A DNA stretch of 64,000 nt. It comes from Clostridia bacterium DTU022 (GTDB taxonomy: Bacteria > Bacillota > Dethiobacteria > DTU022). A model generated the notes under the pieces. It ran no database searches. It saw nothing but the letters and a program-made list of their open reading frames with translations, and was not told the DNA's origin. Location: the NCBI GenBank assembly GCA_001512835.1, contig LFRQ01000063.1:25594-89593 (forward strand), written 5' to 3'. Positions 12,329-61,003 of this stretch are shown piece after piece (position 1 is the first letter of the stretch; each line of letters starts with the position of its first letter). The translations under genes were made by a program, and so were the position numbers.

Positions 12329-13443
12329 ATTGTGAATTTTTAGGAAAAATATGTTATATGTTATGGAGTCAGGCCTTGAAATGTGGATTTTGGAAATTTA
12401 TAGTGCCCAATTCTTGGGCATGGGGGCCGATCTTGAAATGTGAATTTTTGCTGTGCTGGGAAAAACAGTAATTTCGATCTTGAAATATGGCTTTTTTGTA
12501 TGCTATGTTATATATGCCATGGCCAGACCGTTGCGTATCGAATACCCCGGGGCGGTCTATCACATAACAACCCGGGGAAATGCCCAGAATAACATATTCC
12601 GGGATGACCAGGATCGCGAAAACTTCCTCGATATCCTCAATGAAACTGTAAAAAGGCACAACTGGCTTTGTCATGCCTATTGCTTGATGAACAACCACTA
12701 TCATCTGCTCATTGAGACCCCCGAAGCCAACCTTTCCCTGGGCATGAGGCAAATCAACGGTGTCTATACCCAGCGTTACAATAAAAGACATAAGCAGGTA
12801 GGACATGTTTTCCAGGGCAGATACAAGGCGATTTTGGTGGATAAAGAAAACTATCTCCTTGAGTTGTGCCGATATGTAGTGCTCAACCCGGTCAGAGCGG
12901 GGCTCGTGGAATTGCCTGAGCACTGGCAATGGGGAAGCTACCTGCCAACAGCCGGATTCACCGAGGTTCCCGAGTTTCTGACGGTGGACTGGATTCTGGG
13001 CATGTTTGGAACCAACAGGCAGGATGCTCAAAGGCATTATCGAGAATTTGTCAGGGTTGGCCTAAGTAAAAAATCGCCTTGGGACAACCTTGACGGACAA
13101 GTTTTGCTAGGCAGCAAGAATTTTGTGGAACAGTTGAAGGATTTGCTTCAAGAAAAAGAGGGCATAAAAGAGATACCGCGGCATCAACGCTTCGCTAGTC
13201 GGCCCACTCTTGAAGAGATCTTTGCCGCCTGCTTAACCAAATACATTAGAAATGAAAGGATTTACGAGGCCCACGTTAAACATGGCTACTCGTTGATGGA
13301 GATTTCGGATTTTCTGGGCATTCACTACTCCACAATCAGCAAGATAGTCCGAAAAATGGTCCCCAAAAGCTAGCAATTCAAGACCTGACCCCATGCCTAA
13401 AATGACGCCCATAATAAAATTCACAATTCAAGACCTGACCCCC
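12314..13443. mobile_element. REP-RAYT unit: a Y1 (IS200-like) transposase gene flanked by inverted REP-like repeats
   Basis: Four reverse-orientation copies of GGGGTCAGGTCTTGAATTGTGAATTTTT lie upstream at 12314-12497. Two forward copies (AATTCACAATTCAAGACCTGACCCC) lie downstream at 13373-13443. Confidence 0.7.
12519..13373 (+). CDS. REP-associated tyrosine transposase (IS200/IS605 TnpA-like Y1 HUH enzyme) with a C-terminal HTH extension
   Basis: The HUH motif HYHLLIE and the catalytic Tyr region (RYVVLNPVRAGLV) are present. The C-terminal extension (EISDFLGIHYSTISKIV) is DnaA-domain-IV-like. ATG 12519 is the likely start, with an alternative GTG at 12453 inside a REP copy. Confidence 0.8.
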   Translation: MARPLRIEYPGAVYHITTRGNAQNNIFRDDQDRENFLDILNETVKRHNWLCHAYCLMNNHYHLLIETPEANLSLGMRQINGVYTQRYNKRHKQVGHVFQGRYKAILVDKENYLLELCRYVVLNPVRAGLVELPEHWQWGSYLPTAGFTEVPEFLTVDWILGMFGTNRQDAQRHYREFVRVGLSKKSPWDNLDGQVLLGSKNFVEQLKDLLQEKEGIKEIPRHQRFASRPTLEEIFAACLTKYIRNERIYEAHVKHGYSLMEISDFLGIHYSTISKIVRKMVPKS

Positions 13444-19326: not shown

Positions 19327-21114
19327 TTACACCGAACTGCTGCTGCCGGCGGAGGATTTCGCCCAGCCGGCGCGGCCGATAAAGAAGCCCACCACCAGCA
19401 GAATGGCCATGGAAACCAGCCAGATAACCAGGAGCAGCAGGCTGACCTTGTTAAAGCCTGGCTGCAGCTCATCGCTGATCCCGGTCCCGATCTGCTCCAG
19501 CCCGGGCATGATCTTATCCACAATACCGCTCTTAAGCGATTCGATGCCGTCGAGCACACCGGTGTAGATGCCGTCAATAACCAAGCCGAGGCCGTCACTG
19601 ATGCCCGGGTCGCCGCCGGGGTTGGGGCTGAACTCGGGATTGGCCAGGCCGCGGCTGACTTTGCTCAGCCCTTCGACAATCCCTGATTCGCCGGTTGCCG
19701 CTTCGGTCTTGTTAAAACCGAAAAGCATGTTGTCCAGGCCCGGAATCATCTGGGTATCGATGCCTGTCTTCATCTCCTTGAGGCCGGGAACAACCTGAGT
19801 TTTAAGCCCGGCTACGATCTTGTCAAGGCCGGGGGTCATCTCCTGGTCGATGCCGGCATCCAGTTGCTCCAGACCGGGAATTACCTGGGTATTGAGGCCG
19901 CCAAGGATGTTGTTTAGTCCGGGAACCATCTGGGTATCCACGCCCGTCTTCATCGCCTGCAAGCCGGGTATCATATCCTTGTTGATTCCATCCAGCATCT
20001 TGTTTAGTCCGGGAACCATCTGGGTGTCCACGCCCGTCTGCATTAGGTTCAAGCCTGCGGCGATTTGTTCCAGCCCGTCTCGCAGCATCTCCGTAGCCTG
20101 GAGCAAGCCGGGATCCTCGCCCTCTAGCGGGGCGGGGTTGTTTAAAGATTTGTAGACTGTATCCAAAGCTAAAGTCGCAATTAAAATCTTCACCGCATCA
20201 GGCTGATCTGGATCTTTTACTATTCCGATAGCCGTTTCTAAAGCGGTGAGGTTATCTGCCGTCTTTTGATTAATTCTATGGATTCCGTTGATAATTGTAT
20301 CCAGCTCATCGCGAGAACCCAGCCTGGCCAGGACCTGTGCCAATCCCTGGCTAATGCCCGGCTTTTGGGGGTCGGCATTGTCCAGGCCGGCCTTAATTTT
20401 ATTCAGACCTTCCACGATGCCCGACTCCTTGTGCTCGGCTTCCGTCTTATTGAAGCCGTGCAGCACCGCGGCCAGCCCCTGGCTGATACCGGGCTTTTTG
20501 GGGTCGTCATTGTCCAGACCTTGCTTAATCAGGTTCAGACCTTCTACGATGCCCGACTCGCCATCCGTTGCCGCCTTCTTCTTAAAGCCATGGAGGATAT
20601 TGCTCAGCCCGCCGCTGACCGGGCCGGCCAGACCGTTGCGAATCGTGGAAAGACCTTCGATGATTCCAGAATCTTTGTGTTCAGCCTTTGTCTTGGTAAA
20701 GCCTAAGATCATATCTTCCATGCCGGGGCTCATCTTGTCGCTTAGGCCGGAGCGGATGTCGCCCAGCCCAGGGACAACCTGGCCGGCAAGGCCGTCGATG
20801 ATCTTGTTCAATCCCGGCAGCATTTCCGTGTCAATGCCGGTTTTCATGGTCTGCAGGTTCCCGGCGATATCTTCGTCCAGTGCGCTGCCCAGGGTGTCGA
20901 GCCCGCCCACCAGCTGCTCGTTGCCTTGCAGAAGTTCGCCTACCCCGTCCCGGATCTGCTCCGTTCCATCGTAGAGCCGACCCAAGCCGAAAAGAACAAA
21001 ACCCTTTTTATTGGCATCATCCGAAGCGGCGCCGGCAGCGGCAAAAAGAACCAGGCCAATAACCAAAGCGGCGGCAGCAGCTTTGCGGATAACCGCTTTG
21101 TTTGTGATTCTCAA
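19327..21114 (-). CDS. membrane-anchored xxxLxxG heptad-repeat protein (YhgE/Pip-like ectodomain repeats)
   Basis: A TTG start follows AAAGGAGGG. The N-terminal signal-anchor is followed by about 30 degenerate repeats of G(I/V)DTQM(V/I)PGLxx(M/I)(L/I)DG…, and there is a single C-terminal TM. Confidence 0.6.
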   Translation of the reverse strand: MRITNKAVIRKAAAAALVIGLVLFAAAGAASDDANKKGFVLFGLGRLYDGTEQIRDGVGELLQGNEQLVGGLDTLGSALDEDIAGNLQTMKTGIDTEMLPGLNKIIDGLAGQVVPGLGDIRSGLSDKMSPGMEDMILGFTKTKAEHKDSGIIEGLSTIRNGLAGPVSGGLSNILHGFKKKAATDGESGIVEGLNLIKQGLDNDDPKKPGISQGLAAVLHGFNKTEAEHKESGIVEGLNKIKAGLDNADPQKPGISQGLAQVLARLGSRDELDTIINGIHRINQKTADNLTALETAIGIVKDPDQPDAVKILIATLALDTVYKSLNNPAPLEGEDPGLLQATEMLRDGLEQIAAGLNLMQTGVDTQMVPGLNKMLDGINKDMIPGLQAMKTGVDTQMVPGLNNILGGLNTQVIPGLEQLDAGIDQEMTPGLDKIVAGLKTQVVPGLKEMKTGIDTQMIPGLDNMLFGFNKTEAATGESGIVEGLSKVSRGLANPEFSPNPGGDPGISDGLGLVIDGIYTGVLDGIESLKSGIVDKIMPGLEQIGTGISDELQPGFNKVSLLLLVIWLVSMAILLVVGFFIGRAGWAKSSAGSSSSV

Positions 21115-21616: not shown

Positions 21617-21692
21617 AAAATTCAAAATTCAAGACCTGACCCTCTTGCCAGCCTAATTCAAAATTCAAGACCTGACCCCCTGCCTGACCCCC
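21617..21692. repeat. two and a half REP-like copies (AATTCAAAATTCAAGACCTGACCCCC)
   Basis: They are in forward orientation. Copy 2 and the partial copy 3 encode the last residues (QGVRQGVRS*) of the minus-strand membrane protein. Confidence 0.6.
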
Positions 21693-23140
21693 TGCCGGCG
21701 CAGCATTACTACCAGGAACCAGGCCAGGAGAAGGAGGCCTCCGTAAGCGGCGAAAAAGCCCAGGCTGGTCCACAGGTAGCGCAGGGGCTGCTGCAGCAGG
21801 TGGCCGGTGAGGGGGAAGTTGACAAATATAAATAGCGGCAGGCCGAGGAGCAGGGAAAGGGGGGCGGCAGCGGCTGCATCCACGGCGGCGGGGGTTTCCA
21901 GGCGCGGATCGACGGCGCGCACCAGGGCCAGGCTTGAGGCGATATTACCGGTTACCAGCCCGAATACGGCCGCGGTGCGCTCCGCGGCGAAGTCGCCGTG
22001 GAGGCGGGGGGAGATAAACCAGACCAGAGCCATGAGGCCTGCGCCGCAGAGCAGGGAGAGCACCAGGACCTCCACCCAGTATTCACGCACCAGAACCAGG
22101 GGAATGGAGGCCACGGCCCCGGCAACCAGGAAATCCACCATGGCCCCGGAGATGCGGGCGAACAGGCCGGTGTCAAAGAGGTGGCCGAGTTCCATCCAGT
22201 CTATTACCTTCCTGGCCAGGAAAGCAATCAGGAGAGCGACGGCAAAGCTGTAGCTCCACAGGATCCCGCTGGCCAGTTCCCCGCTCTCGCCCAAGCGGGC
22301 GAGTAGGAGCGAAAGCCGGTGAAGCAGTTCATAGGTGAGGAGGAAAACAATCCCGATCAGGGCCAGGTGAAGGGTAAAGGACTCGATTCCTTCCACGGCG
22401 GTAGTCAGGTGTCCGGCCACCGGCTTCTTCTCCTCGCGGGAAAGAAGGCCCAGCAGCACCGATCGGCTGGCCACCCTTTGGGACCCTTTTTTCCGGCGCA
22501 GCAGGAAGACCAGAACCGCTCCCCCGAGATAAGCCCAGAGAAAACCGGCAGTGCCGAAGGAAAAACCGGTCCAGCCGCCGGCTGTAAAGCCCAGCTGCTC
22601 CCACTGCAGGCCGAAATTGGCGGCGATGAGGTGATCCAGGCCGAAACCCAGCAGGGGCAGCATGGAGAAAGAAGGAAAGAAATCGGGCCGCAGTGCTGCT
22701 ATCCAGGCCAGGGTGAAGGCGATGCCGAGCAAGGCCAGCAGTGTGTAGCTTTTACAGACAGCCAGCAAGGTGGTGATGATCCCCTCGCCGTGCCGGTAGC
22801 GCGGTTTTTGCAGGCCGAAGACAATAAACACCCCCGTCAGCAAGTGGTGCACCACGGTGTTCAGATGGTCATGGGAGAGGGCGATGAGGCCGCAGACTTG
22901 CCGGTCCAGCAGAAGAAGGATTAGGCCGGCAATTAGCGCGTTGGGGAGAAACAAGCGCTGCAGAAAGGAGAGCTGCCGGCGCAGGAAGGTGGCGGCAGCC
23001 AGGCCGCAGCCGAGATAAGCAAATACCAAAACTGCATCCCAGGAGATAAAAGTGGACAGTTCCAAGGGAGCACCTCTCTTTTCCATGCCGCTCTGGTCCA
23101 AATGTTTACGGCTGTCCTTTTCCCTTGTTGTCTCCGCCAT
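21665..23140 (-). CDS. polytopic membrane protein, putative transporter; function unassigned
   Basis: About 12 hydrophobic helices. The start is uncertain: ATG 23140, or more plausibly TTG 23065 after AGAGAGGTG. The 3' end runs into the REP copies. Confidence 0.55.
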   Translation of the reverse strand: MAETTREKDSRKHLDQSGMEKRGAPLELSTFISWDAVLVFAYLGCGLAAATFLRRQLSFLQRLFLPNALIAGLILLLLDRQVCGLIALSHDHLNTVVHHLLTGVFIVFGLQKPRYRHGEGIITTLLAVCKSYTLLALLGIAFTLAWIAALRPDFFPSFSMLPLLGFGLDHLIAANFGLQWEQLGFTAGGWTGFSFGTAGFLWAYLGGAVLVFLLRRKKGSQRVASRSVLLGLLSREEKKPVAGHLTTAVEGIESFTLHLALIGIVFLLTYELLHRLSLLLARLGESGELASGILWSYSFAVALLIAFLARKVIDWMELGHLFDTGLFARISGAMVDFLVAGAVASIPLVLVREYWVEVLVLSLLCGAGLMALVWFISPRLHGDFAAERTAAVFGLVTGNIASSLALVRAVDPRLETPAAVDAAAAAPLSLLLGLPLFIFVNFPLTGHLLQQPLRYLWTSLGFFAAYGGLLLLAWFLVVMLRRQGVRQGVRS

Positions 23141-36830: not shown

Positions 36831-36960
36831 CATGCCGGACTTCATGGCCCGGAAAGCCCCGAAAGGAAGGCGAGAAAGGCTGCTTATCTAGATGGAGTTG
36901 CAGCAGATGCCGGCTAAGGGTGCGGCAGGCCGCGCTGCCGGTAAAGAGCGGAGCGCTTTT

Positions 36961-37728
36961 CTATACTTGCTCTTTGACGGGCACTCCCTGGGCCGCCAGG
37001 TACTTTTTCAGCTCGGGAATGGTGATCCGGCCGAAGTGGAAAACCGAAGCCGCCAGCAGGATATCGGCTCCCGCCTTGGCCGCCTCCAGGAAGTGCTCCC
37101 GGGTGCCGGCTCCCCCGGAGGCAACTACGGGGACCGCCACCACTTTCTTGATCCGGCGAATCAGGGGCAGGTCGTAGCCGGCTCTGGTCCCGTCGCAGGC
37201 TTTGCTGGTGGGGAGAATAATCCCCGCTCCCCTGGCGGCGGCTTCCCTGGCCCAGTCCACGGCATCTTTCCCCGTGGGGGTGCTGCCGCCGTCCACGTAG
37301 ACTTCGTAGCCCGAGGGAAGTTCTGGGTTCCGGTCAACATCCACCGCCACCACCACCCTTTCGCTGCCGAAACGTCGGGCGGCCTCGTCGATGAGTTGGG
37401 GGCGGCGGAAAGCGGCGCTGCTCATGGAGATGCGGTCGGCTCCCGCGGCCAGGACCGCTTCGGCATCAGCGATGCTGCCGATGCCCCCGCCCACGGTAAA
37501 GGGGACGGTGGTAACGGCAGCCACGCTGCGGACCGTCTGCAGCATCGTTTTTCGTCCCTGGATGGTGGCTGTTATATCCAGAAAAGCCAGCTCATCGGCC
37601 CCGGCGGCACAGTAGGCGCGGGCGCAAGCCACCGGGTCCCCGGCATCCTGCAGTTCAACGAATTGGACTCCTTTTACCACTCGCCCGTCCTTGATATCGA
37701 GACAGGGCATGATCAGTACATGTTCCAT
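36961..37728 (-). CDS. hisF: imidazole glycerol phosphate synthase cyclase subunit
   Basis: It is a (beta/alpha)8 HisF-type protein with the phosphate-binding motifs (GGGI, ASGGAG). AGGAGG precedes the ATG. No other his genes are in the window. Confidence 0.85.
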   Translation of the reverse strand: MEHVLIMPCLDIKDGRVVKGVQFVELQDAGDPVACARAYCAAGADELAFLDITATIQGRKTMLQTVRSVAAVTTVPFTVGGGIGSIADAEAVLAAGADRISMSSAAFRRPQLIDEAARRFGSERVVVAVDVDRNPELPSGYEVYVDGGSTPTGKDAVDWAREAAARGAGIILPTSKACDGTRAGYDLPLIRRIKKVVAVPVVASGGAGTREHFLEAAKAGADILLAASVFHFGRITIPELKKYLAAQGVPVKEQV

Positions 37729-37802
37729 GGTACGCCTCCTTGCTTGGGCCGGAGATGCGGCCGGGATAAGATGAGCCTGTCCAAGCGGCCGGCCATAAAC
37801 GG

Positions 37803-38450
37803 CTAAAGCAGGTGCCGGGCGAAAAAAGCGGATACCAGGCCGGCCATCTCTTCCTCGTAGCCTCCCCAGAAATGGTCGGCTCCTTTCACGATCTCCACGG
37901 TCCCGCCGCCGCTCCTCTCGTTTTCGGCCAGAATTCTATCTGTGGGGGCCAGGGGGTCCCGGGTGCCGCATACTATCAGGCGAGGAATGGAAACGGAGGT
38001 GGCGGGAATTTCCGGAGGAGAGACGGCGGCCACCGCTTTGACCCCTTCCCCTTTTTGCGCAGCGGCCAGGGCCACGGTCCCGCCGAAGGAATAGCCCATC
38101 AGGCCCATCCTGAAACCGTCAACGCCTTCCTGGCCGGCCAGGAAAGCCAGGGCGGCCCGGGCGTCTTCCACTTCACCCCGGCCATGGTCGTGGGAGCCTT
38201 CGCTGCGCCCCACGCCGCGAAAATTAAAGCGCAGGGCGGCCATCCCTTTTTCCACCAGGGCCTTGCTCACGGCGTAGATGACGTTGTTATCCATGCTGCC
38301 CCCGTACAGGGGGTGGGGATGGCAGAGGACTACCCCCGCCACGGGAGACCGAGGCCCCGGGGAGGGGGTGGGCGTAAGGAGAACCCCTTCCAGGTGCAGG
38401 CGGCCGCTATTTATGGTTACCTTTGTCCTGTTCATCGGAAACCTCTTCAC
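37803..38450 (-). CDS. alpha/beta hydrolase (dienelactone-hydrolase-like)
   Basis: It has a nucleophile elbow GYSFGG and a HCHPHPLYGG region. Confidence 0.65.
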   Translation of the reverse strand: MKRFPMNRTKVTINSGRLHLEGVLLTPTPSPGPRSPVAGVVLCHPHPLYGGSMDNNVIYAVSKALVEKGMAALRFNFRGVGRSEGSHDHGRGEVEDARAALAFLAGQEGVDGFRMGLMGYSFGGTVALAAAQKGEGVKAVAAVSPPEIPATSVSIPRLIVCGTRDPLAPTDRILAENERSGGGTVEIVKGADHFWGGYEEEMAGLVSAFFARHLL

Positions 38451-40109: not shown

Positions 40110-40937
40110 TTATTTTAAGGGAACAGCCCGCGTTACGGTGTACTCGATTATGTCTTCCATTTTATCATAGATATAGACGAACATATATTTATCCCCAATT
40201 TTCGCTATATCGTTGATAAAACTATACGACGAATCCGTAAAGGCATAATCATAGTGAATAACTGTTACTTTTCCTGCGCCGAAATCTCTTTTTTGGGAAC
40301 TGATTTCATTGATCACATACGCACCATCAGCAACTTTATTGGCGTAAAACTCGGGGTCGTTAAAGTAAGCGTCATACCCTTTTCCATGTTCCTCGTCAAA
40401 CAGACCGTGATACATAAAGAAGATATCGAGATTGAAGTCATCGACAATATCCTCTGCCCTGTCATTTATCGTATAGGGGTAGTTTTCGATGACCATCTCT
40501 CCCTCTTTCGCTCCCGGCATCGCCATTTGCATAAGCTCGCCTGTTTCTGTGTACCACAGCTCCACATACCCTTCTAACGTCTTCTGTCCATCTTCCTCTT
40601 TCGACACTGTTATGGCAAAATGCCCGGTCTTTGTGTCATGAACTGTGTCATCCCCAAGGTACTTGGAATGAAGGTAACAGGTTTCTGAAAAAAAATCATC
40701 ATAAAGGGTTATTTCGAATTCTTTAAAGTAGGCGATAAAGCTTAGATCAGTAAATTTATGAAACTCACCGTCAACGAAATACCATTCCCCCTCGGTAATC
40801 ACCGGCTCTTTGCCGGAATCACCTGTTTCCTCTTCCAAATTGCCGGGTTCGGCGCCGCCGTTTTCTTCGTCCCCGCTGCATGCCGTTAAGGTCAAGGCCA
40901 TGACCACGGCCAGCAACAATACCAAGAAGGATCTCAT
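40110..40937 (-). CDS. hypothetical lipoprotein with about 42% GC, much lower than the ~60% surroundings
   Basis: A signal peptide with lipobox LTAC is present. The mature protein is Asp/Glu/Tyr/Phe-rich with no recognised domain. AAAGGAGGAG precedes the ATG. Confidence 0.7.
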   Translation of the reverse strand: MRSFLVLLLAVVMALTLTACSGDEENGGAEPGNLEEETGDSGKEPVITEGEWYFVDGEFHKFTDLSFIAYFKEFEITLYDDFFSETCYLHSKYLGDDTVHDTKTGHFAITVSKEEDGQKTLEGYVELWYTETGELMQMAMPGAKEGEMVIENYPYTINDRAEDIVDDFNLDIFFMYHGLFDEEHGKGYDAYFNDPEFYANKVADGAYVINEISSQKRDFGAGKVTVIHYDYAFTDSSYSFINDIAKIGDKYMFVYIYDKMEDIIEYTVTRAVPLK

Positions 40938-42865: not shown

Positions 42866-43780
42866 ATGATATTAAGGACTTACCCAAACGAAGAAACGGA
42901 ACAGCATGAAATAAAGCAAATAGAATATCTGCAGGCATCGTTTAATTTGCCCGGGACGATGGTTGACCATTATCCTTACTCCCTGGGTAAAGTGGGCGGA
43001 AATTTATTTGAAGAAAAGTTCAGGCTGGAACTTACTGCTGTGAAAGAGCTTGATTCCGCGGATAGCAGCACATCCGGCAGCGGGAAAAGGCTGATCCGGG
43101 TCGAAAAGGGCATCCAGAGAATACAGGCCATCGTACCTGAAAGCAGCAGCCTGGAAGAAGCGGTTATAAAATTTAAAAAAGCTCTGGAATGGACGATCAG
43201 GGCCTTGAACAGTCTCATGGAATACCGGGACCCTTATACGGCCGATCACCAGAGAAGAGTTGCCTGCCTGGCGGCGGCCATCGCCCGGGAAATGGGCTTG
43301 GGCGAGGAGCAGGTGGAAGTTGTCCGCCTGGCGTCCACTATTCATGACATCGGGAAAATTTCTGTTCCTGCGGAAATATTGACCCGGCCCGGGCAGATTA
43401 GCGAGATCGAGTTTAATATGATCAAGTGCCACCCGCAAATCGGCAGCGATATTCTCAGGTCCATTGAATTTCCTTTTGCCATTGAGAAGATTATTTGCCA
43501 GCACCATGAAAAGTTTGACGGCTCCGGGTATCCCATTGGCTTGATGAGCGAGGAGATACTCCTGGAAGCCCGCATCCTGGCCGTGGCTGATGTGGTGGAG
43601 GCCATCTCTTCTCACCGCCCGTATCGGCCGGCCCTGGGAGTTGATGCCGCCCTGGCGGAGATCTCCAAGGGTAAAGGAACTCTGTATGATGCTGAAGTGG
43701 TAAATGCCTGCTTGCGGGTGTTTTCCAACAGCAATTTTGATTTTAGCGACCCGGATTGTTTGACGATTTCTTATGCTTAG
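42866..43780 (+). CDS. HD-GYP domain phosphodiesterase with an unassigned ~120-aa N-terminal domain
   Basis: HD (IHDIGK) and HD-GYP (HHEKFDGSGYP) motifs are present. The gene is about 50% GC and has an AT-rich upstream region. Confidence 0.8.
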   Translation: MILRTYPNEETEQHEIKQIEYLQASFNLPGTMVDHYPYSLGKVGGNLFEEKFRLELTAVKELDSADSSTSGSGKRLIRVEKGIQRIQAIVPESSSLEEAVIKFKKALEWTIRALNSLMEYRDPYTADHQRRVACLAAAIAREMGLGEEQVEVVRLASTIHDIGKISVPAEILTRPGQISEIEFNMIKCHPQIGSDILRSIEFPFAIEKIICQHHEKFDGSGYPIGLMSEEILLEARILAVADVVEAISSHRPYRPALGVDAALAEISKGKGTLYDAEVVNACLRVFSNSNFDFSDPDCLTISYA

Positions 43781-50044: not shown

Positions 50045-50803
50045 ATGGGAATGGAAATGAATTATCGAAGCAGCATTGAAAGGGTGGCCAAACTTATCAA
50101 GGAAAGCCCGCTCTTCTATGCCTTGACAGGAGCGGGAATTAGCACGGAAAGCGGCATTCCCGATTTCCGGAGCCCGGGAACGGGGATTTGGGAGAAGGTG
50201 GATCCCTTTGCCACCTCTACGGTCCATGTCCTGCATGAAAACCCGGCGCTATTTTACGAGGCGGGCTTCTCCCGTTTTGCGGAAATGATCCAGGCCGAGC
50301 CAAATCGGGCGCACCACGCCTTGAAGCAGATGGAAGACCACGGCTACTTGAAAGGGATCATCACCCAGAACATCGACAGCCTCCACTGGAAAGCCGGTTC
50401 CCGGCGGGTCTGGGAGGTGCACGGGCACCTGCGGACCTGCCACTGCCAGGGCTGCTGCCAGCGGTTCTCCTTTGAAGTGCTGGTGGAGAAGGTAGCCGGC
50501 GGGCAGATTCCTCCTCCCTGTCCCCGCTGCTCCGGCATACTGCGACCCGACGTGGTCCTGTTCGGAGACACCATGTCGCCTGCTTTTTTCGAAGCGGAAG
50601 AGGTGCTTCGGAAGGGCTGCGACCTGATGATGGTTATCGGCAGCAGCCTGGTGGTTTACCCGGTGGCCGATCTGGTCCGCTTTGCCCGCAAGCTGGTGAT
50701 CATCAACGCCCAGGAGACCAATTACGACTACCGAGCCGAGGTGGTGATCCGAGAAAAGTGCGGCCAGGTTTTAACGGATATTGTCAAGGCCCTGGAAGAA
50801 TAA
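50045..50803 (+). CDS. cobB: Sir2-family NAD-dependent protein deacylase
   Basis: GAGIS…GIPDFR, the Zn ribbon CxxC…CxxC (CHCQGC…CPRCSG) and GSSLVVYP are present. The start is ATG 50045, 50051 or 50057. Confidence 0.85.
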   Translation: MGMEMNYRSSIERVAKLIKESPLFYALTGAGISTESGIPDFRSPGTGIWEKVDPFATSTVHVLHENPALFYEAGFSRFAEMIQAEPNRAHHALKQMEDHGYLKGIITQNIDSLHWKAGSRRVWEVHGHLRTCHCQGCCQRFSFEVLVEKVAGGQIPPPCPRCSGILRPDVVLFGDTMSPAFFEAEEVLRKGCDLMMVIGSSLVVYPVADLVRFARKLVIINAQETNYDYRAEVVIREKCGQVLTDIVKALEE

Positions 50804-50820: not shown

Positions 50821-51086
50821 GGGAGATCCGTCATTAGGGAGGGTGATAATATCGCAGAACAAAGATAGAAGGTCCGTCATTGGGCAGAACAAACAATGTA
50901 AAATATGTTATAATATTGTCGAATATATCTGTCTTTAACAGCAAAAAGCGACAAGTATCCAATTTTTACCTTGGCAACGGTCACCCTAGCGTCGGGTGGT
51001 GGAATATTATGTTGGTGGAATAGCGGGCTCGCGGCGGGAATAATATTTTAAGCCTCATCCGTGAAAAGAAGGGAGGGTTGAAGGAG

Positions 51087-51758
51087 ATGAAATTTGTAGA
51101 GCGGGTAACGGACCTGGAAGAGGATTATCGCGACCGTGCCCTGGGCTCCTGGCTAAACCAGATAATGCCTTCCTGGGTCCATCCCAACCATATCAGTATC
51201 CTCCGCCTGGTCCTGTTAAGTGTGGCTATTCTTCTATTCTTTTATAGGCGACCCCTGATGCACCAGGTCTGGATACTGGTGGCGGCGGCGCTAACGGATG
51301 CCCTGGACGGCCCTATTGCCCGGGCCAGAAACCTGCAGAGCAGGATCGGGGCCTACCTGGATCACGGAATTGACTGGGCGCTGGGAGCCTGGGCCGGGAT
51401 CCTGGCCCTGGTAAACGGGCTGCTCTCCCTGGGCCTGATTGCCAACCTGGTGGCACCCCAGGCGGTGCTTACGGTCCTGGACCGGATCCGGGCTTCCCGC
51501 ATCGCCGGCCGCCAGGGAAAGGACCGGGCGCTGACCATTGCCATGGGGGCGGCCAATTTTCGGCCCACCGCCTTTGCCCGGATCCAATTCGTGGCCGTCC
51601 TCCTGGGCTTCCTGCTGCTGCTCTACAGCAAGTCCGGCGGCTCGCCTTTTTTCCGGAGCCTGGGCCTGTTTTGCCTTTACCTGGAGATTGCCCTGGCCTG
51701 GTTCCTGGTAGTGGAAGGGCTGTACCGGCTGGTGGGAAATGAGCCGGAGGGACGGTGA
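51087..51758 (+). CDS. CDP-alcohol phosphatidyltransferase family membrane protein
   Basis: The signature D(x)2DG(x)2AR…G(x)3D(x)3D is present (DALDGPIARAR…GAYLDHGIDW). The stop codon lies inside a copy of the second dispersed repeat. Confidence 0.75.
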   Translation: MKFVERVTDLEEDYRDRALGSWLNQIMPSWVHPNHISILRLVLLSVAILLFFYRRPLMHQVWILVAAALTDALDGPIARARNLQSRIGAYLDHGIDWALGAWAGILALVNGLLSLGLIANLVAPQAVLTVLDRIRASRIAGRQGKDRALTIAMGAANFRPTAFARIQFVAVLLGFLLLLYSKSGGSPFFRSLGLFCLYLEIALAWFLVVEGLYRLVGNEPEGR

Positions 51759-51820: not shown

Positions 51821-52618
51821 ATGGAGAGGGGCGGACAAGGCGTGCTGGGGGCCATAGCCGGCGATGTAATCGGCTCCGTATACGAATTTAACAATATTAA
51901 AACTACCCAATTTGAGCTGTTTAGCCCCGGCTCCACCTTTACCGACGATACGGTCCTGACCATAGCTGTGGCCGATTGCATCATGCACCGGGGAGATTAT
52001 GCCGCCTATTTAAAAGAATACGGCCTCCAGTACCCGGGAGCCGGCTACGGGGGACGCTTTTTGAACTGGCTGCACTCCCCTTCCGCCGAGCCCTACAACA
52101 GCTGGGGCAACGGTTCGGCCATGCGGGTAAGCCCGGTGGGCTTTGCTTTTTCAAGCCTGGAGGAGGTCCTCTTCGAGGCGCGGCGCAGCGCCCTGCCAAC
52201 CCATAACCACCCGGAAGGGATCAAGGGCGCCCAGGCCACCGCTGCCGCCATTTTCTTGGCCCGCCGGGGGGAGAGCAAGGAAGAGATCAAGAAATATCTG
52301 ACCCGGACCTTCGGGTACAACTTGGAGCGGACCCTGGAAGAGATACGGCCGCACTACCGGTTTGACGTGAGCTGCGCCGGAACTCTCCCGCCGGCCTTCA
52401 CCGCCTTTCTGGAATCGGAGGACTTTGAGGATGCTATCCGGAAGGCGGTATCCCTGGGCGGGGACAGCGACACCATAGCCTGCATTGTGGGGGGCATAGC
52501 CCAGGCCTACTACGGCCAAGTACCGGACTGGATCGCCGAAAAGGTAATCTCCTTGCTCCCCCGGGAATTTCAGGAAGTGGTGAGCAAGTTTAACCGCTGG
52601 GCGGGGATAGAAAAATAG
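51821..52618 (+). CDS. ADP-ribosylglycohydrolase (DraG/ARH family)
   Basis: The N-terminal metal-site pattern is present (AGDVIGSVYEF…TDDTV), and the C-terminus has GGDSDTIACIVGG. Confidence 0.8.
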   Translation: MERGGQGVLGAIAGDVIGSVYEFNNIKTTQFELFSPGSTFTDDTVLTIAVADCIMHRGDYAAYLKEYGLQYPGAGYGGRFLNWLHSPSAEPYNSWGNGSAMRVSPVGFAFSSLEEVLFEARRSALPTHNHPEGIKGAQATAAAIFLARRGESKEEIKKYLTRTFGYNLERTLEEIRPHYRFDVSCAGTLPPAFTAFLESEDFEDAIRKAVSLGGDSDTIACIVGGIAQAYYGQVPDWIAEKVISLLPREFQEVVSKFNRWAGIEK

Positions 52619-52657
52619 TAATAAAAAATTGCTTTGCCGCTTATAGATTTAATCTTT

Positions 52658-52692
52658 GGAAGACGGCCATCTTCCCGGCCGTCTTCCTTTTT
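52658..52692 (+). terminator. rho-independent terminator
   Basis: The stem GGAAGACGGCC / GGCCGTCTTCC is followed by TTTTT. Confidence 0.7.
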
Positions 52693-52965
52693 GGGGCCGG
52701 CTTCCGCTTCTTGCGCTTGCCCCTGGAAGCAGCGGGGAATATAATGGTATCACTTCTTATGTAAACCAAAATTGTAAACCGGACAAACTTGCTCCAATTT
52801 GTGACAAAAAGATTTATATTATAACAGGATTTTTTATTTTATATAGCCAATTCTTTCTTGATTCACATTACTCCTGGCATGGACCGGTTTTCTCCGCGGT
52901 AGAGCAACACTCACCTATTCCCGCCTGTTGCCCCGTGGCGGCTGTCGGTTTTGAGGAGGAAGGCC

Positions 52966-55368
52966 ATGAAATATTTATTTGCCGATTTAATTGAGTTTTC
53001 GGTCATAGAAGAGTTGATGGAATACTTTCACCAGGTAACGGGAGTAGCCCTGGCCCTGATTGATATCCAGGGGGAGGTCCTGCTCAAGGCAGGGTGGCAG
53101 GAGATCTGCACCGATTTTCATCGTGTTCATCCCCGCACTCTTAAGCGCTGCCTGGACAGCGATGTCGCGATAGCCGCCCGGCTGGGCTCGGGCCTGGAAC
53201 AGGTCTGCCATAAGTGCCTCAACGGGCTTATGGATATGGCTGCTCCGGTAATCGTGAACGGGGAGCACGTGGCCTCGGTTTTCATCGGCCAGTTCTTCAG
53301 CGAAGAACCCGACGAGGATTTTTTCCGGGCCCAGGCCCGGAAATACGGTTTTGACGAAGAGGCGTATTTAAAAGCCTTGTCCAAGGTTCCGGTGCTGGAA
53401 GAGAAAAAGGTGAAGTCGATTATATCTTTCCTGGCCCGCTTTGCCGAAGTGCTGACCATGATGGGCCGCAATCGCCAGCAGCTGCTGGAGGCCCAGAAGA
53501 AGCAGCAGGAAAGCGAAGCTCAGCTCAGGCAGATTGCGGAAAGCATGCTGGACATGGTGTTGCAGACGGATATCAGGGGGAAGATCCTCTATGTCAGCCC
53601 ATCCCAGAAGGGGGTTCTGGGTTACGATCCGGGGCAGCTGCTGGGGGGGAGCCTATTTGATTACGTCCCCTCTAAAGAACGTTCCCGGATCGAGAAAAGG
53701 TTTCTAAAGAAGTTGAAGGCCGGGGAGAACGATCTCCAGATTTTCCGCTGCCGGCATGCTGACGGCAGGCATGTCTGGCTGGAAGCGGTAAGCAGCCCTT
53801 TCCGGAACCCGGAAGGGGCCATCTCCGGAAGCATAATCAGTTGCCGGGACGTTACCGATCGCCTCACGGCGGAAGAGAAGTTGAAGGAGTCCGAAGAAAG
53901 GTACCGGGAGATCTTGGCCTCCATCGAGGAAGGCTACTACGAGGTGGATTTGAAAGGCAATCTTACCTTCTTCAACGAGGCTACCTGCCGGATGGTAGGG
54001 TACAGCAGCGAGGAGCTGCTGGGGATGAACTACCGGCAGATATTCGACGAGCCGGAGAAGGTTTACCATACCTTCCACCAGGTTTATCTAACGGGAAAGC
54101 CCGAGGGCCGGTTTACCATGATGGGGCGGCGCAAAAACGGCACCTCCTTTTACGTCGAGCTTTCCATTTCGCTCCTTAAGGACAAAGAGGGGCGGAGCAT
54201 CGGCTTCCGGGGGGTGGCCAGGGATATCACGGAGCGAATCAGTTTTGAAAAACAACTGCGCTTTCTAAGCTTCCACGATCAGTTGACCGCCCTTTACAAC
54301 CGGAACTTTTTTGAGGAAGAGATGAGGCGCCTGGAGGGCAGCAGGGAGTACCCCATTACTATCATCTCCGCCGACCTGGACGGCTTGAAGATCATCAACG
54401 ACACCATGGGTCACAGCCGCGGCGATCAACTGCTCCAGGCCTGCGCCGATTTGCTGAAAAGAAATCTGCGCAAGGAGGACGTCCTGGCCCGGGTTGGCGG
54501 CGACGAATTTGCCATTATCCTGCCCCGCACCAGCGAAGAGGCCGGGGACGCCATTATCCGGAGAATGCAGGCCGCCATAGAGAATTATAACCGGGTCCAC
54601 ACCGACCTTCCCCTAAGCGTTTCTTTTGGGGTGGCCACCACCACGGGCCGGGAAACCCTGGAGGAGACCTTTATCAGGGCGGACGACCTTATGTACCGGG
54701 ATAAATTATACCGGGGCGCCAGCGTCCGCGGCCAGATTGTCAACTCCCTGCTTACCGCCTTGGCGGAGCGGGATTTTATCAACCAGGGGCATACGGTCAG
54801 GCTCCAGGAACTCTGCCAGAAAATGGGGGAGAAGCTGGGGCTCTCCTCCCGGAAGATGAGCGATCTCCTCCTTTTAGCCCAGGTTCACGACCTGGGCAAG
54901 GTGGGGATCCCGGACCGCATTCTTTACAAAAAAGGAGAGCTCACCGAGGAGGAATGGGAGATCATGCGCCAGCACCCGGAGAAGGGGTACAGGATTGCCC
55001 TGGCCTCCCAGGACCTGGCTCCCATTGCCGATCTTATCCTGCGCCATCACGAGAACTGGGACGGCACCGGCTATCCCCTGGGCATTGCCGGCAACGATAT
55101 CCCCATTGAATGCCGCATCCTGGCCGTGGTGGATGCTTTTGACGCCATGACCAGCGAGCGCCATTACCGGCCGGCGATGTCCGTGGAAAAAGCGGTGGAG
55201 GAGCTCAAGAAGGTCTCCGGCACCAAGTACGATCCGGATATATTAAAGGTATTTCTCGAAATTATTGAAAGCGGCGATTACAGCCGGCGGAACGATGAAT
55301 TCGTCTCCATGGCCGATGTATGGAACAAGCCCCGCAGGCCCGACAGCGCATCCCGGTACCAGCACTGA
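52966..55368 (+). CDS. multidomain c-di-GMP enzyme: PocR sensor, 2x PAS, GGDEF, HD-GYP
   Basis: The PocR N-terminus (…ALIDIQGEVL…CHKCLNGLMDMAAPV…) is followed by two PAS regions and the GGDEF motif RVGGDEFAIIL. The HD-GYP domain carries HD and HHENWDGTGYP. ATG 52966 follows GAGGAGGAAGG. Confidence 0.85.
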   Translation: MKYLFADLIEFSVIEELMEYFHQVTGVALALIDIQGEVLLKAGWQEICTDFHRVHPRTLKRCLDSDVAIAARLGSGLEQVCHKCLNGLMDMAAPVIVNGEHVASVFIGQFFSEEPDEDFFRAQARKYGFDEEAYLKALSKVPVLEEKKVKSIISFLARFAEVLTMMGRNRQQLLEAQKKQQESEAQLRQIAESMLDMVLQTDIRGKILYVSPSQKGVLGYDPGQLLGGSLFDYVPSKERSRIEKRFLKKLKAGENDLQIFRCRHADGRHVWLEAVSSPFRNPEGAISGSIISCRDVTDRLTAEEKLKESEERYREILASIEEGYYEVDLKGNLTFFNEATCRMVGYSSEELLGMNYRQIFDEPEKVYHTFHQVYLTGKPEGRFTMMGRRKNGTSFYVELSISLLKDKEGRSIGFRGVARDITERISFEKQLRFLSFHDQLTALYNRNFFEEEMRRLEGSREYPITIISADLDGLKIINDTMGHSRGDQLLQACADLLKRNLRKEDVLARVGGDEFAIILPRTSEEAGDAIIRRMQAAIENYNRVHTDLPLSVSFGVATTTGRETLEETFIRADDLMYRDKLYRGASVRGQIVNSLLTALAERDFINQGHTVRLQELCQKMGEKLGLSSRKMSDLLLLAQVHDLGKVGIPDRILYKKGELTEEEWEIMRQHPEKGYRIALASQDLAPIADLILRHHENWDGTGYPLGIAGNDIPIECRILAVVDAFDAMTSERHYRPAMSVEKAVEELKKVSGTKYDPDILKVFLEIIESGDYSRRNDEFVSMADVWNKPRRPDSASRYQH

Positions 55369-57718: not shown

Positions 57719-59488
57719 TTGTATAGAAGAGGTAAAACCGGGAAAAATCCCAGGGCTTTCGGTTCCTGTGGCGGTTATAAACAGCGGTCGCTGCAAGCCG
57801 ACTCCGGCCAGTTCGCGGCCAGGGGGATCGGCCGGGTTCCCGCCAGCTGCCCGCCGGGCTTTCAAGGGCGCTACACGGTTCAGTCCGGCGATACGATGTT
57901 CTTTATTGCGCAGCGGTTCGGGGTCTCCCTGCAGGCGCTGATCAATGCCAACCCGCAGATACCCGATCCCAGCGTTCTCTTCCCGGGCGACGTGCTCTGT
58001 GTTCCCGGGGCTGGGGCTCCGCCTGGCGGCCGGGTTCCCGCCAGCTGCCCGCCTGGTTTTCAAGGGCGCTACACGGTTCAGCCCGGCGATACGATGTTCT
58101 TTATTGCGCAGCGGTTCGGAGTTTCCCTGCAGGCGCTGATCAATGCCAACCCGCAGATACCCGATCCCAACGTCCTCTTCCCTGGGGATGTCCTCTGCGT
58201 TCCCGGGGGACCGCCGGCCGGCCGGGTTCCCGCCAGCTGTCCGCCGGGCTTTGGCGGCCGTTACACGGTGCAGTCGGGCGACAGCATGTTCAGCATCGCT
58301 CAGCAGTGCGGGGTCTCTCTGCAGGCGCTGATCAACGCCAACCCGCACATTACCGACCCGAACCAGCTCTTCCCCTGCGATGTGCTCTGCGTCCCCTGCC
58401 CGCAGCCGGGCCGGGTGCCCACCAGTTGCCCGCCGGGCTTCCAGGCCCAGTATACGGTGCGTCCCGGCGACAGCATGTTCAGCATCGCCCAGCTTTTCGG
58501 GGTGAGCTTGCAGGCGCTGATCAACGCCAACCCGCACATTACGGACCCGAATCAGATCAACCCCTGCGACGTGCTCTGCGTTCCCTGCGTGCCGGTGAGG
58601 GTATCCCCCTGCTTTCCGGTGCCTGAAGAAGGCGGTCGGGTCCCTAAAGACTGCCCCAAGGGTTTCGGGGGGCGCTACACGGTGCAGGCCGGTGACAGCA
58701 TCTTCAGCATCGCCCAGCAGTGCGGGGTCTCCCCGCAGGCGCTGATTAAGGCCAACCCGCACATTCATGATCCGAAAAAGCTCCAGCCGTGCGACGTCCT
58801 TTGCGTTCCCTGCCCGCAGCGGGGCCGGGACCCCAAGGACTGCCCCAAGGGTTTTGAGGCCCAGTATACGGTGCGTCCCGGCGACAGCATTTTCAGCATT
58901 GCCCAGCTTTTCGGGGTAAGCGTGCAGGACTTGATCAAGGCCAACCCGCACATTCATGATCCGAAAAAGCTCAACCCCTGCGACGTGCTCTGCGTCCCCT
59001 GCGTACCGGTGAAGGTTTCTCCCTGCTTCCGAGAGCCGCTCCTGGAAGGCCGGGTTCCTACCAGCTGTCCCCAGGGCTTCCAGGGCCGCTATACCGTGGA
59101 GGCGGGAGATACCATGTCTGCTATAGCGCAGCGGTTTGGGGTTTCTTTGCAGGCGCTGATTAACGCCAACCCGCAGATCACCAATCCGGACGAACTTTTC
59201 CCGTGCGACGTGCTCTGCGTCCCCTGCCCGCAGCCGGGCCGGGTTCCCGCCGGCTGCCCGCCGGGCTTCCAAGGCCAGTACACCGTGGCTCCCGGCGACA
59301 GCATGTTTACCATAGCGCAGCGGTTCGGGGTTTCCCTGCAGGAGCTGATTAATGCCAACCCGCAGATTCCCGATCCCAACCAGCTCTTCCCCTGTGACGT
59401 CCTCTGCGTCCCGTGCCCCGCTTCCCTGACGGCGGTGGAAGTGGAAGAGATGGAAGAGGAGGGGGAAAAGAAGGAGATCGATCTCTAA
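57719..59488 (+). CDS. protein with eight tandem LysM domains separated by Cys/Pro-rich linkers and an acidic C-terminal tail
   Basis: The unit YTV(Q/R)(S/P)GD(T/S)MF.IAQ.FGVSLQALINANP…DVLCVPC recurs eight times at about 55 aa. The tail is EVEEMEEEGEKKEIDL. A TTG start follows GGAAAGGAG. Confidence 0.8.
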   Translation: MYRRGKTGKNPRAFGSCGGYKQRSLQADSGQFAARGIGRVPASCPPGFQGRYTVQSGDTMFFIAQRFGVSLQALINANPQIPDPSVLFPGDVLCVPGAGAPPGGRVPASCPPGFQGRYTVQPGDTMFFIAQRFGVSLQALINANPQIPDPNVLFPGDVLCVPGGPPAGRVPASCPPGFGGRYTVQSGDSMFSIAQQCGVSLQALINANPHITDPNQLFPCDVLCVPCPQPGRVPTSCPPGFQAQYTVRPGDSMFSIAQLFGVSLQALINANPHITDPNQINPCDVLCVPCVPVRVSPCFPVPEEGGRVPKDCPKGFGGRYTVQAGDSIFSIAQQCGVSPQALIKANPHIHDPKKLQPCDVLCVPCPQRGRDPKDCPKGFEAQYTVRPGDSIFSIAQLFGVSVQDLIKANPHIHDPKKLNPCDVLCVPCVPVKVSPCFREPLLEGRVPTSCPQGFQGRYTVEAGDTMSAIAQRFGVSLQALINANPQITNPDELFPCDVLCVPCPQPGRVPAGCPPGFQGQYTVAPGDSMFTIAQRFGVSLQELINANPQIPDPNQLFPCDVLCVPCPASLTAVEVEEMEEEGEKKEIDL

Positions 59489-59737: not shown

Positions 59738-61003
59738 ATGGGAAAGAGGATGATCTGGTTCCTGCTCCTCCTGGTGCTGGCGGCTCTTCCTGTCGACGCC
59801 CGGGAAGAGGTGAGCTGGCGCGGCATCTACAAGGGAGCCGGGTACCTGGAGATCCCCCGGGGGACAACGGTGAACGGCGATGTCCGGGTGCCGGCGGGGG
59901 AGATCGTCGTTGACGGCGTGGTTAACGGCAGCGTCACCAGCTCCATGGGCCAGTTGACGGTGCGGGGAGAGGTGAACGGAGATGCCCGGGTCCGGATGGG
60001 CAGGGCGGAGATTTCCGGCACCGTCAGGGGCGATCTGCGGGCCGACATGGGGGAGATCCGGGTAGAGGGCCTGGTGACGGGCGATGTCCGGGGAGATCTG
60101 GGTTCCATCAGGATAGACGGCACCGTGGGCGGAGATGTCAACTCTTCCCTGGGTGAGGTAATCATAAACGGGACCGTGGAGGGCAGCGTCTTCAGCGAAG
60201 GCAAGCGGGTGATCATCGCCGGCACCGTGGGCGGAGATGTCAACGTGACCCGGGGAATAGTGGAATTAAAAAAGGGCGCCCGGGTGGAGGGAGAAGTGGC
60301 TGTCGAGCGCGGCCTGGTCAGGCAGGGCGAAGGGGCGGAAGCGGGCTCCATCCGCGTGGAGGAGGAACTCTCCGAGGAAGAGATTGACACCCTTTTCCGG
60401 TCGAAGGGCTATTTTCCCTGGGGCCTGGATAAATTCATGGACCTGCCGGTAGGGCCCAACCTGCTGGAGGGGCTGGCGGATCTTCCCCGCTTTCTGCCCC
60501 GCATGGGCTTCTACTGGTCCGGCTGGAGGGGCGCCACGGCTTACCGCATTGTGCGCATCGCATTCTTCTTTGCCCTCTCCGCCCTGGTTTATGCTCTCTT
60601 CCCCCGGCAGGTGGAGACGGCAGCCCGGGCCCTGGAGACCAAAACGGGTGCCGCCGCCCTGGCGGGGATCCTGGCGGCGCTCCTTATTTTGCCGGTCCTT
60701 TTGATCCTGTTGCTGACCATCATCGGCATACCCCTGATCCCCGTCGCTCTCCTACTCCTGGCTGCGGCCTGGTTTCTGGGCTTTACCGGCATCGCCCTCT
60801 GGCTGGGGGAGAGACTGGCCCGGGCCATGGGGCTCCACTGGCCGCCGCTGGCTCACATCGCCGCAGGGGTCTTGGTAGTGGGCTTAGTGGGCCTTCTTCC
60901 GGTGCTGGGGACGCTCCTGGGGATCGCCCTTTTTGTGTTTGCCGTGGGTTCCGCCCTGGTGACCCGGCTGGGGACGTCTTCGGGGGAGGCCCTCCTGGAT
61001 TAG
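59738..61003 (+). CDS. secreted, membrane-anchored protein with a bactofilin-like beta-helical repeat region
   Basis: A signal peptide is followed by about 10 repeats of G(D/E)V…G(S/T)V.G(D/S)V (polymer-forming cytoskeletal-like), then an acidic linker and about 4 C-terminal TM helices. Confidence 0.45.
   Translation: MGKRMIWFLLLLVLAALPVDAREEVSWRGIYKGAGYLEIPRGTTVNGDVRVPAGEIVVDGVVNGSVTSSMGQLTVRGEVNGDARVRMGRAEISGTVRGDLRADMGEIRVEGLVTGDVRGDLGSIRIDGTVGGDVNSSLGEVIINGTVEGSVFSEGKRVIIAGTVGGDVNVTRGIVELKKGARVEGEVAVERGLVRQGEGAEAGSIRVEEELSEEEIDTLFRSKGYFPWGLDKFMDLPVGPNLLEGLADLPRFLPRMGFYWSGWRGATAYRIVRIAFFFALSALVYALFPRQVETAARALETKTGAAALAGILAALLILPVLLILLLTIIGIPLIPVALLLLAAAWFLGFTGIALWLGERLARAMGLHWPPLAHIAAGVLVVGLVGLLPVLGTLLGIALFVFAVGSALVTRLGTSSGEALLD

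Follow-up and report, generated by a model that had tools for sequence, protein, structure and literature searches.

A stretch of 64 kb from contig LFRQ01000063.1 (in the following called the window), which belongs to an uncultured organism of the Dethiobacteria (Bacillota), encodes a protein of 800 amino acids with the domain order PocR-PAS-PAS-GGDEF-HD-GYP. Judging from its sequence, this protein is fairly probably a true bifunctional enzyme, in which a sensor would switch the turnover of cyclic diguanylate (c-di-GMP) between synthesis by the GGDEF domain and hydrolysis by the HD-GYP domain. An initial annotation had read the domain order from motifs within a single polypeptide. This order is borne out by the Pfam models, with which the NCBIfam domain calls agree, and all domains score far above threshold.

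Domain order and catalytic residues

The protein is encoded by a single open reading frame (ORF) on the plus strand, which starts with a TTG at 52951 or an ATG at 52966 and ends with a TGA stop codon at 55366-55368 (all positions are those of the window). The ATG at 52966 is the likely translation start, because the Shine-Dalgarno sequence GAGGAGG (52953-52959, plus strand) lies 6 nt 5' of it and because the resulting form of 800 residues is the one which has been deposited. The coding sequence including the stop codon then spans 52966-55368. The maximal Kyte-Doolittle hydropathy is 1.38 (averaged over 19 residues) and no transmembrane segment is predicted; the protein is thus predicted to be soluble and cytoplasmic.

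The PocR sensory domain comprises residues 7-166 (52984-53463; Pfam E 1.4e-49). It is followed by a first PAS domain at residues 186-296 (53521-53853) and a second one, assigned to PAS_9, at residues 322-423 (53929-54234); the PAS and the PAS_9 family each match both of these stretches, with E-values of 2.3e-33 and 3.5e-35, respectively. The GGDEF diguanylate cyclase domain occupies residues 436-580 (54271-54705; Pfam E 3.1e-36) and the HD-GYP phosphodiesterase domain, recognized by the HD_5 model which corresponds to HD-GYP, residues 598-759 (54757-55242; Pfam E 4.1e-40). All of these features lie on the plus strand, and with E-values this small the Pfam assignments are not due to chance. Behind the last domain extends a C-terminal tail (residues 765-800, 55258-55365, plus strand), which is delimited by the alignment and by the structure prediction. 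These last 36 residues (SGDYSRRNDEFVSMADVWNKPRRPDSASRYQH) have no counterpart in the aligned homologues and are predicted to be disordered, with a predicted local distance difference test score (pLDDT) below 50.

The motif RVGGDEFAIIL is located at residues 509-519 and contains the A-site GGDEF (residues 511-515; 54496-54510, plus strand). Upstream of it, in the canonical spacing of five residues, lies an I-site of the RxxD type, RKED (residues 502-505; 54469-54480, plus strand). In an alignment with active cyclases of the PDB and with orthologues, the metal-binding D470, the guanine contacts N478 and D487 and the phosphate-contact and other residues K475, R509 and K580 are kept, which are equivalent to D327, N335, D344, K332, R366 and K442 of PleD. 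Conservation was determined for the GGDEF-HD-GYP region of 100 homologues, which are 53-63% identical to the target protein. D470, K475, N478, D487, R509, the GGDEF motif and K580 are conserved to 99-100% in them; the A-site and D470 are identical throughout all 101 sequences, and the arginine and the aspartate of the I-site are found in 100 of the 101.

The HD motif of the HD-GYP domain is encoded at 54886-54891 and the motif HHENWDGTGYP, residues 694-704, at 55045-55077 (both plus strand). The best solved relative of this domain is PmGH (4mcw), with an E-value of 2e-38 and an ungapped alignment. H609, H641/D642, K645, H670, H694/H695 and D723 of the target take the places of PmGH H189, H221/D222, K225, H250, H276/H277 and D305. 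Seven of the eight PmGH metal ligands are kept in this way, together with the HHExxDGxGYP signature (E696, D699 and G702-Y703-P704), and these ligand and signature residues as well as K645 are conserved to 96-100% in the homologues. The initial annotation had described both catalytic motifs as intact. A search for degenerate catalytic residues by profile and alignment, which covered the A-site and the I-site of GGDEF as well as the active-site motifs of HD-GYP, found all of them intact, and the interpretation survived this check. Both sites are, as far as alignments can tell, under selection, since the catalytic residues are about invariant in homologues of this degree of divergence.

The missing ligand is E185 of PmGH, which binds the third iron. 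In the target it is replaced by Ile605, and an isoleucine, leucine or valine is found at that position in 96 of 101 homologues. The trinuclear subclass of the PmGH and TM0186 type is defined by an acidic residue here. From the replacement of the third-metal glutamate by a residue which is hydrophobic throughout the family, the domain is assigned to the binuclear subclass. In their HD-GYP census, Galperin & Chou describe the members of the binuclear class as active on c-di-GMP with a tendency to stop at pGpG, a rule that is not absolute.

These residues also bear on the idea that the protein is effectively no more than a diguanylate cyclase, with HD-GYP serving as a module for the binding of c-di-GMP or pGpG or for protein interactions. 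Inactive HD-GYP domains that work via protein-protein interactions are documented, and the absence of the third-metal ligand would fit such a role. The documented cases, however, have altered HD or HHE motifs, whereas the target has kept all ligands of the binuclear site as well as the GYP motif, and these are conserved; moreover, binuclear HD-GYPs are active enzymes (Galperin & Chou). We regard a cyclase of this kind as very unlikely.

Among the solved relatives of the HD-GYP domain, the cGAMP phosphodiesterase V-cGAP3 from Vibrio (5z7c, E 1e-32) ranks second, which brings up another dinucleotide, 3'3'-cyclic GMP-AMP (3'3'-cGAMP). The GGDEF domain would then be a synthase of the Hypr type and the HD-GYP domain a V-cGAP-like hydrolase. 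Hypr GGDEF domains have a serine at the position of PleD D344, whereas the guanine-specifying Asp of the target, D487, is invariant at this position, by which a cGAMP-forming Hypr domain is ruled out. Since the best HD-GYP match is in addition the c-di-GMP enzyme PmGH, turnover of 3'3'-cGAMP seems highly improbable.

The sensory domains

The PocR domain matches the Pfam family PF10114 with 168.4 bits (cut-off 23.9) over profile positions 1-160 of 162. Structures were predicted as two separate AlphaFold2 (AF2) models, one for the PocR part and one for the part from PAS2 over GGDEF to HD-GYP. The PocR domain is modelled with a pLDDT of 94.9, and its fold is nearest to the IclR effector and GAF small-molecule-binding domains.

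The well known PocR protein from Salmonella enterica is an AraC-type activator of the cob/pdu operons and senses 1,2-propanediol. The Salmonella sequence used as query is 100% identical to annotated pocR genes; its PocR domain, common to both proteins, is 26% identical to that of the target, and the two were aligned by BLASTP and by hhalign (probability 97.7%). R51, D64 and Q107 of the Salmonella protein correspond to R53, D66 and Q109 of the target, and C47, H53, C60 and C82 to C48, H55, C62 and C84. The response to 1,2-propanediol is abolished by the exchanges R51A and D64A and weakened by Q107A, and the specificity is tuned by F46 and by G105/G106 (Teng et al. 2024). In contrast to Salmonella PocR, the target has an isoleucine, Ile47, at the position of F46, and there are no pdu or cob genes in its window.

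To which extent these residues are shared was determined for 171 PocR domains from the 150 best representatives (P0233-P0382). C62 and G108 are conserved in all 171 of them, C48, R53 and Q109 in 170 each, D66 in 164, C84 in 162 and H52 in 157; S65 is likewise near-invariant, whatever output domain follows. The three cysteines and a nearby histidine of this cluster are also found in Salmonella PocR.

An exhaustive HMMER search with the PocR domain yielded 7,730 cluster representatives (50% identity, E ≤ 0.001), 3,428 of them with E <1e-30; an earlier word-indexed search with the PocR domain alone, which gave only 5 matches, is superseded by the profile and exhaustive searches. Among the 150 best representatives GGDEF was also matched in two and HD-GYP in one, both together in none. 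Histidine-kinase domains were found in five of ten representatives checked with Pfam, a sample that was chosen to include the three with GGDEF or HD-GYP matches. As an N-terminal sensor PocR is thus promiscuous, and proteins in which it is fused to both GGDEF and HD-GYP are uncommon.

Because the core is invariant across proteins with many different outputs, it suggests that these share a cofactor, a metal or a class of ligands, and less that the residues make contacts specific to one ligand. The three cysteines and the histidine are interleaved with the pocket of Arg, Asp and Gln, a hint of a metal or thiol centre, for which no description in PocR domains was found in the literature searched. 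Taken further, the PocR domain would not be a plain hydrocarbon pocket but a metal-centred or thiol sensor, by which an enzyme with truly active GGDEF and HD-GYP domains is switched from synthesis to hydrolysis and back. Cys48, Cys62 and Cys84, with His52, in one pocket with R53, D66 and Q109 could then bind Zn or Fe or respond to the redox state, and the hydroxyl of an alcohol or diol could coordinate to the PocR-bound metal. We consider this extended proposal speculative and rather improbable in its entirety.

The two PAS domains weakly resemble those of FixL, NifL and the LOV type. A haem or flavin as in FixL or LOV was rejected, as the signature residues are not conserved: in PAS2 the sequence GMNYRQIF has a tyrosine where the LOV motif NCRFLQ has the adduct-forming cysteine, and the candidate haem histidines in EKVYHTFHQ are replaced by arginine and asparagine in orthologues. 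PAS1 is missing altogether from the alignment in two orthologues that contain PocR.

Proposed switching between synthesis and hydrolysis

The protein would act as a cytoplasmic one-component sensor enzyme in the form of a parallel homodimer. PocR and the two PAS domains would constitute the input, from which long helices would lead to GGDEF, with the binuclear-type HD-GYP domain directly after it. In the AF2 models a predicted helix (residues 146-174) joins PocR to PAS1, and PAS2 is followed by a helical linker (DITER...FLSFHDQLT) that runs into GGDEF. In PadC-type sensor cyclases changes of the helical register control the pairing of the GGDEF domains. A register switch is proposed for the target, since its GGDEF domain is joined to the sensor via a helical linker as in these cyclases. 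The phytochrome PadC (PDB 5llw) and the PAS/GAF-GGDEF cyclases share with the target a homologous GGDEF domain (E 1.6e-18) and the helical linker to the sensor, but their sensor is a different one and a phosphodiesterase at the C-terminus is absent.

Occupancy of the PocR pocket, which would be lined by R53, D66, Q109 and the cluster of Cys48, Cys62, Cys84 and His52, would shift the register of the helical linkers, and the PAS inputs may add to this. In the first state the two GGDEF domains would pair and convert GTP to c-di-GMP, limited by binding of the product at the RxxD I-site. In the second state the pairing of the cyclase would be blocked and HD-GYP would hydrolyse c-di-GMP, with pGpG as the probable main product because the third-metal glutamate is missing. 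In this way the protein would raise or lower the local level of c-di-GMP in response to a cue, either a small molecule or the redox state.

A cyclase and a phosphodiesterase on one polypeptide are also found in the bifunctional GGDEF-EAL enzymes BphG1, ScrC, Lpl0329 and CdgB of Azospirillum, which are reciprocally regulated under the control of a sensor. Their phosphodiesterase has the EAL fold (TIM barrel), in contrast to the HD-GYP domain of the target.

Several observations speak against a switchable enzyme with two full activities. The GGDEF domain ends early: its Pfam alignment reaches no further than profile position 155 of 161, the C-terminus reads DKLYRG (KLYR) in place of the canonical AKxxGRN, and the AF2 model lacks the terminal beta-strand, a helix heading straight to HD-GYP instead. 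The equivalent of PleD R446, R583, does not align to the canon and is R, K, S or H in the family. With a trimmed C-terminus and a variable R446 equivalent, the efficiency of the cyclase is uncertain. The junction between GGDEF and HD-GYP is short and is modelled with a pLDDT of 53-67 and a predicted template modelling score (pTM) of 0.52; because of this low confidence no coupling geometry between the two domains can be claimed from the model. Finally, the R/D/Q residues of PocR do not vary among thousands of PocR proteins whose outputs differ, and hence they indicate no specific ligand.

The C-terminus of GGDEF leads to the main competitor of a bifunctional enzyme, namely a protein that is in effect a phosphodiesterase only. 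Its GGDEF domain would be a nucleotide-sensing module that tunes HD-GYP, with GTP bound to the A-site or c-di-GMP to the I-site. PdeA/CC3396, a GTP-activated GGDEF-EAL phosphodiesterase, offers an analogue. Besides the absence of the canonical C-terminal strand and the variable R446 equivalent, the conserved I-site, which could act as a substrate sensor, fits such a protein, as does the statement of a review that tandem proteins usually have one dominant activity. However, in the regulatory GGDEF domains known to date the A-site is degenerate, whereas the GGDEF motif, both metal-binding aspartates, N478, D487 and K475 are invariant in the 100 diverged homologues, as selection for catalysis would give. 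We consider a phosphodiesterase with a purely regulatory GGDEF domain unlikely, yet it deserves to be taken into account, and favour the bifunctional enzyme.

Genomic context and known relatives

The gene of the target looks monocistronic and independently transcribed, because it is preceded by an intrinsic-terminator-like hairpin and then a sigma-70-like site. The hairpin, revealed by a terminator scan, is located at 52658-52687 (52658-52697 with the T-run, plus strand) and has an 11-bp stem with 8 G-C pairs; it ends the upstream ADP-ribosylglycohydrolase gene and separates the target from upstream transcription. The candidate promoter TTGCCC-17-TATAAT (52717-52745, plus strand) agrees with the consensus in 10 of 12 positions, is proposed from this consensus match only and lies about 220 nt 5' of the start codon. 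C-di-GMP riboswitches often sit 5' of the genes for c-di-GMP enzymes. In an Rfam scan of the whole window no family, including the c-di-GMP riboswitches, reached the threshold, and the region 52600-53000 gave chance-level matches only; a riboswitch or leader RNA upstream of the target was rejected accordingly.

Operon partners were rejected as well, given the terminator upstream, a spacer of about 440 nt downstream and functionally unrelated neighbours (Sir2, CDP-alcohol phosphatidyltransferase, ADP-ribosylglycohydrolase, LysE and an alpha/beta hydrolase). Synteny is not conserved, since the contexts of two orthologues differ from that of the target and from each other. On L001 (73-4404), which carries P0007, the full-length orthologue nearest to the target (50% identity), a PocR-PAS-GGDEF-HD-GYP gene is directly followed by a tandem paralogue that encodes a PAS-GGDEF-HD-GYP protein of 619 amino acids; on L002 the neighbours are radical-SAM genes. 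No pdu, cob, microcompartment, B12 or methyltransferase genes were identified within the 64 kb window. A propanediol-type ligand, which the initial annotation had put forward as a candidate, therefore finds no support in the gene context.

The stand-alone HD-GYP gene that had been noted upstream (42866-43780, plus strand) is real. It encodes 304 amino acids with HD_5 at residues 114-278, while the N-terminal approximately 110 residues have no Pfam match. Its HD, HHEKFDGSGYP and D motifs are intact, a tyrosine occupies the position of PmGH E185, and the database entries for the protein ('HD-GYP domain-containing protein') stem from the same metagenome-assembled genomes (MAGs) as the target. Eight genes, or about 9 kb, lie between the two, and no link beyond this proximity was found.

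Some other regions of the window were also recorded. Immediately 5' of the target, the CDP-alcohol phosphatidyltransferase (51078-51758) has a Sir2-family deacylase (50045-50803) on one side and the ADP-ribosylglycohydrolase (51821-52618; all plus strand) on the other, and the two flanking enzymes may form a pair for reversible ADP-ribosylation. A protein of 589 amino acids with eight LysM repeats (57719-59488, plus strand) is followed by an unusually long bactofilin-domain protein of 421 amino acids (59738-61003, plus strand). An IS200/Y1-type transposase (12453-13373, plus strand) lies in a stretch of low G+C content (0.47 at 12-14 kb versus about 0.57 elsewhere). Four putative ORFs of 275-595 amino acids have no Pfam family at threshold (19327-21114, 21665-23140 and 40110-40937 on the minus strand; 36892-37806 on the plus strand), one of them with a sub-threshold beta-roll match.

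The exact sequence of 800 residues is present in NCBI nr under the name 'PAS domain S-box protein [Bacillota bacterium]' (HOB86811.1, HPZ64449.1, HQD05414.1 and MFY9446652.1), and MAGs of 'Dethiobacteria bacterium' contain near-identical copies. The neighbouring genes are assigned alike, and the protein was found on 15 contigs, which have several sources. Proteins of the PAS-GGDEF-HD-GYP type are very common, with more than 1,600 matches at E <1e-10 in the protein collection and at least 559 related stretches in species-representative genomes; the related stretches include such from Bacillota, Desulfohalobiaceae, Gastranaerophilales, Thermotogae, Actinomycetota and a Methanosarcinales MAG. On the contig of the latter, L004 (140-1555, uncultured Methanosarcinales), a PAS-GGDEF-HD-GYP fragment is 48% identical to residues 301-767 of the target. 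It may represent a c-di-GMP enzyme of an archaeon or else a mistake in binning, and the contig is too short to tell.

Uncharacterised PAS-GGDEF-HD-GYP proteins from Bacillota and further anaerobes, for example P0016 and P0080 ('diguanylate cyclase [Dethiobacter sp.]'), are 53-63% identical to the target over the C-terminal 345 amino acids. The trimmed GGDEF C-terminus, the short linker, the binuclear-type HD-GYP and all catalytic residues are common to the target and these relatives, whereas most of the relatives carry a GAF or an extra PAS domain at the N-terminus and not PocR. Among the 120 best matches, only four further proteins of the type PocR-(PAS)n-GGDEF-HD-GYP were identified (P0007, P0021, P0026 and P0027; 44-52% identity). 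Galperin & Chou cite RCIX2274 (CAJ37382) of Methanocella arvoryzae as REC-PAS-PocR-GGDEF-HD-GYP. Compared by this described architecture, it contains the same domain types, including PocR, GGDEF and HD-GYP, and differs from the target by the added REC domain, the domain order and the archaeal host. PmGH, the GAF-HD-GYP phosphodiesterase of Persephonella marina (PDB 4mcw/4mdz), has the HD-GYP ligands and the GYP motif in common with the target, but its site is a trinuclear iron site formed via E185 and it has no GGDEF domain.

Tandems of GGDEF and HD-GYP have been known from the first description of the domain onwards, and reviews mention them; a biochemical study of any such hybrid was not found in the searchable literature. 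The novelty seen in the protein by the initial annotation was too high, as protein and architecture are already in databases and literature. On its own the target adds little, because an identical protein is deposited and each domain as well as their combination is catalogued.

Its value is that of a clean, soluble representative encoded by a single gene, with which it can be asked if GGDEF-HD-GYP hybrids with two intact sites are bifunctional and how their direction switches. It is likewise a representative for the questions what PocR domains bind and which role the invariant constellation of three cysteines, His, Arg, Asp and Gln plays, and a construct of it would offer a direct enzymatic read-out in the screening of PocR ligands. 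If the switch by a metal or thiol centre were true, it would provide a mechanistic model, the first of its kind, for sensing by PocR as well as for hybrids of GGDEF and HD-GYP.

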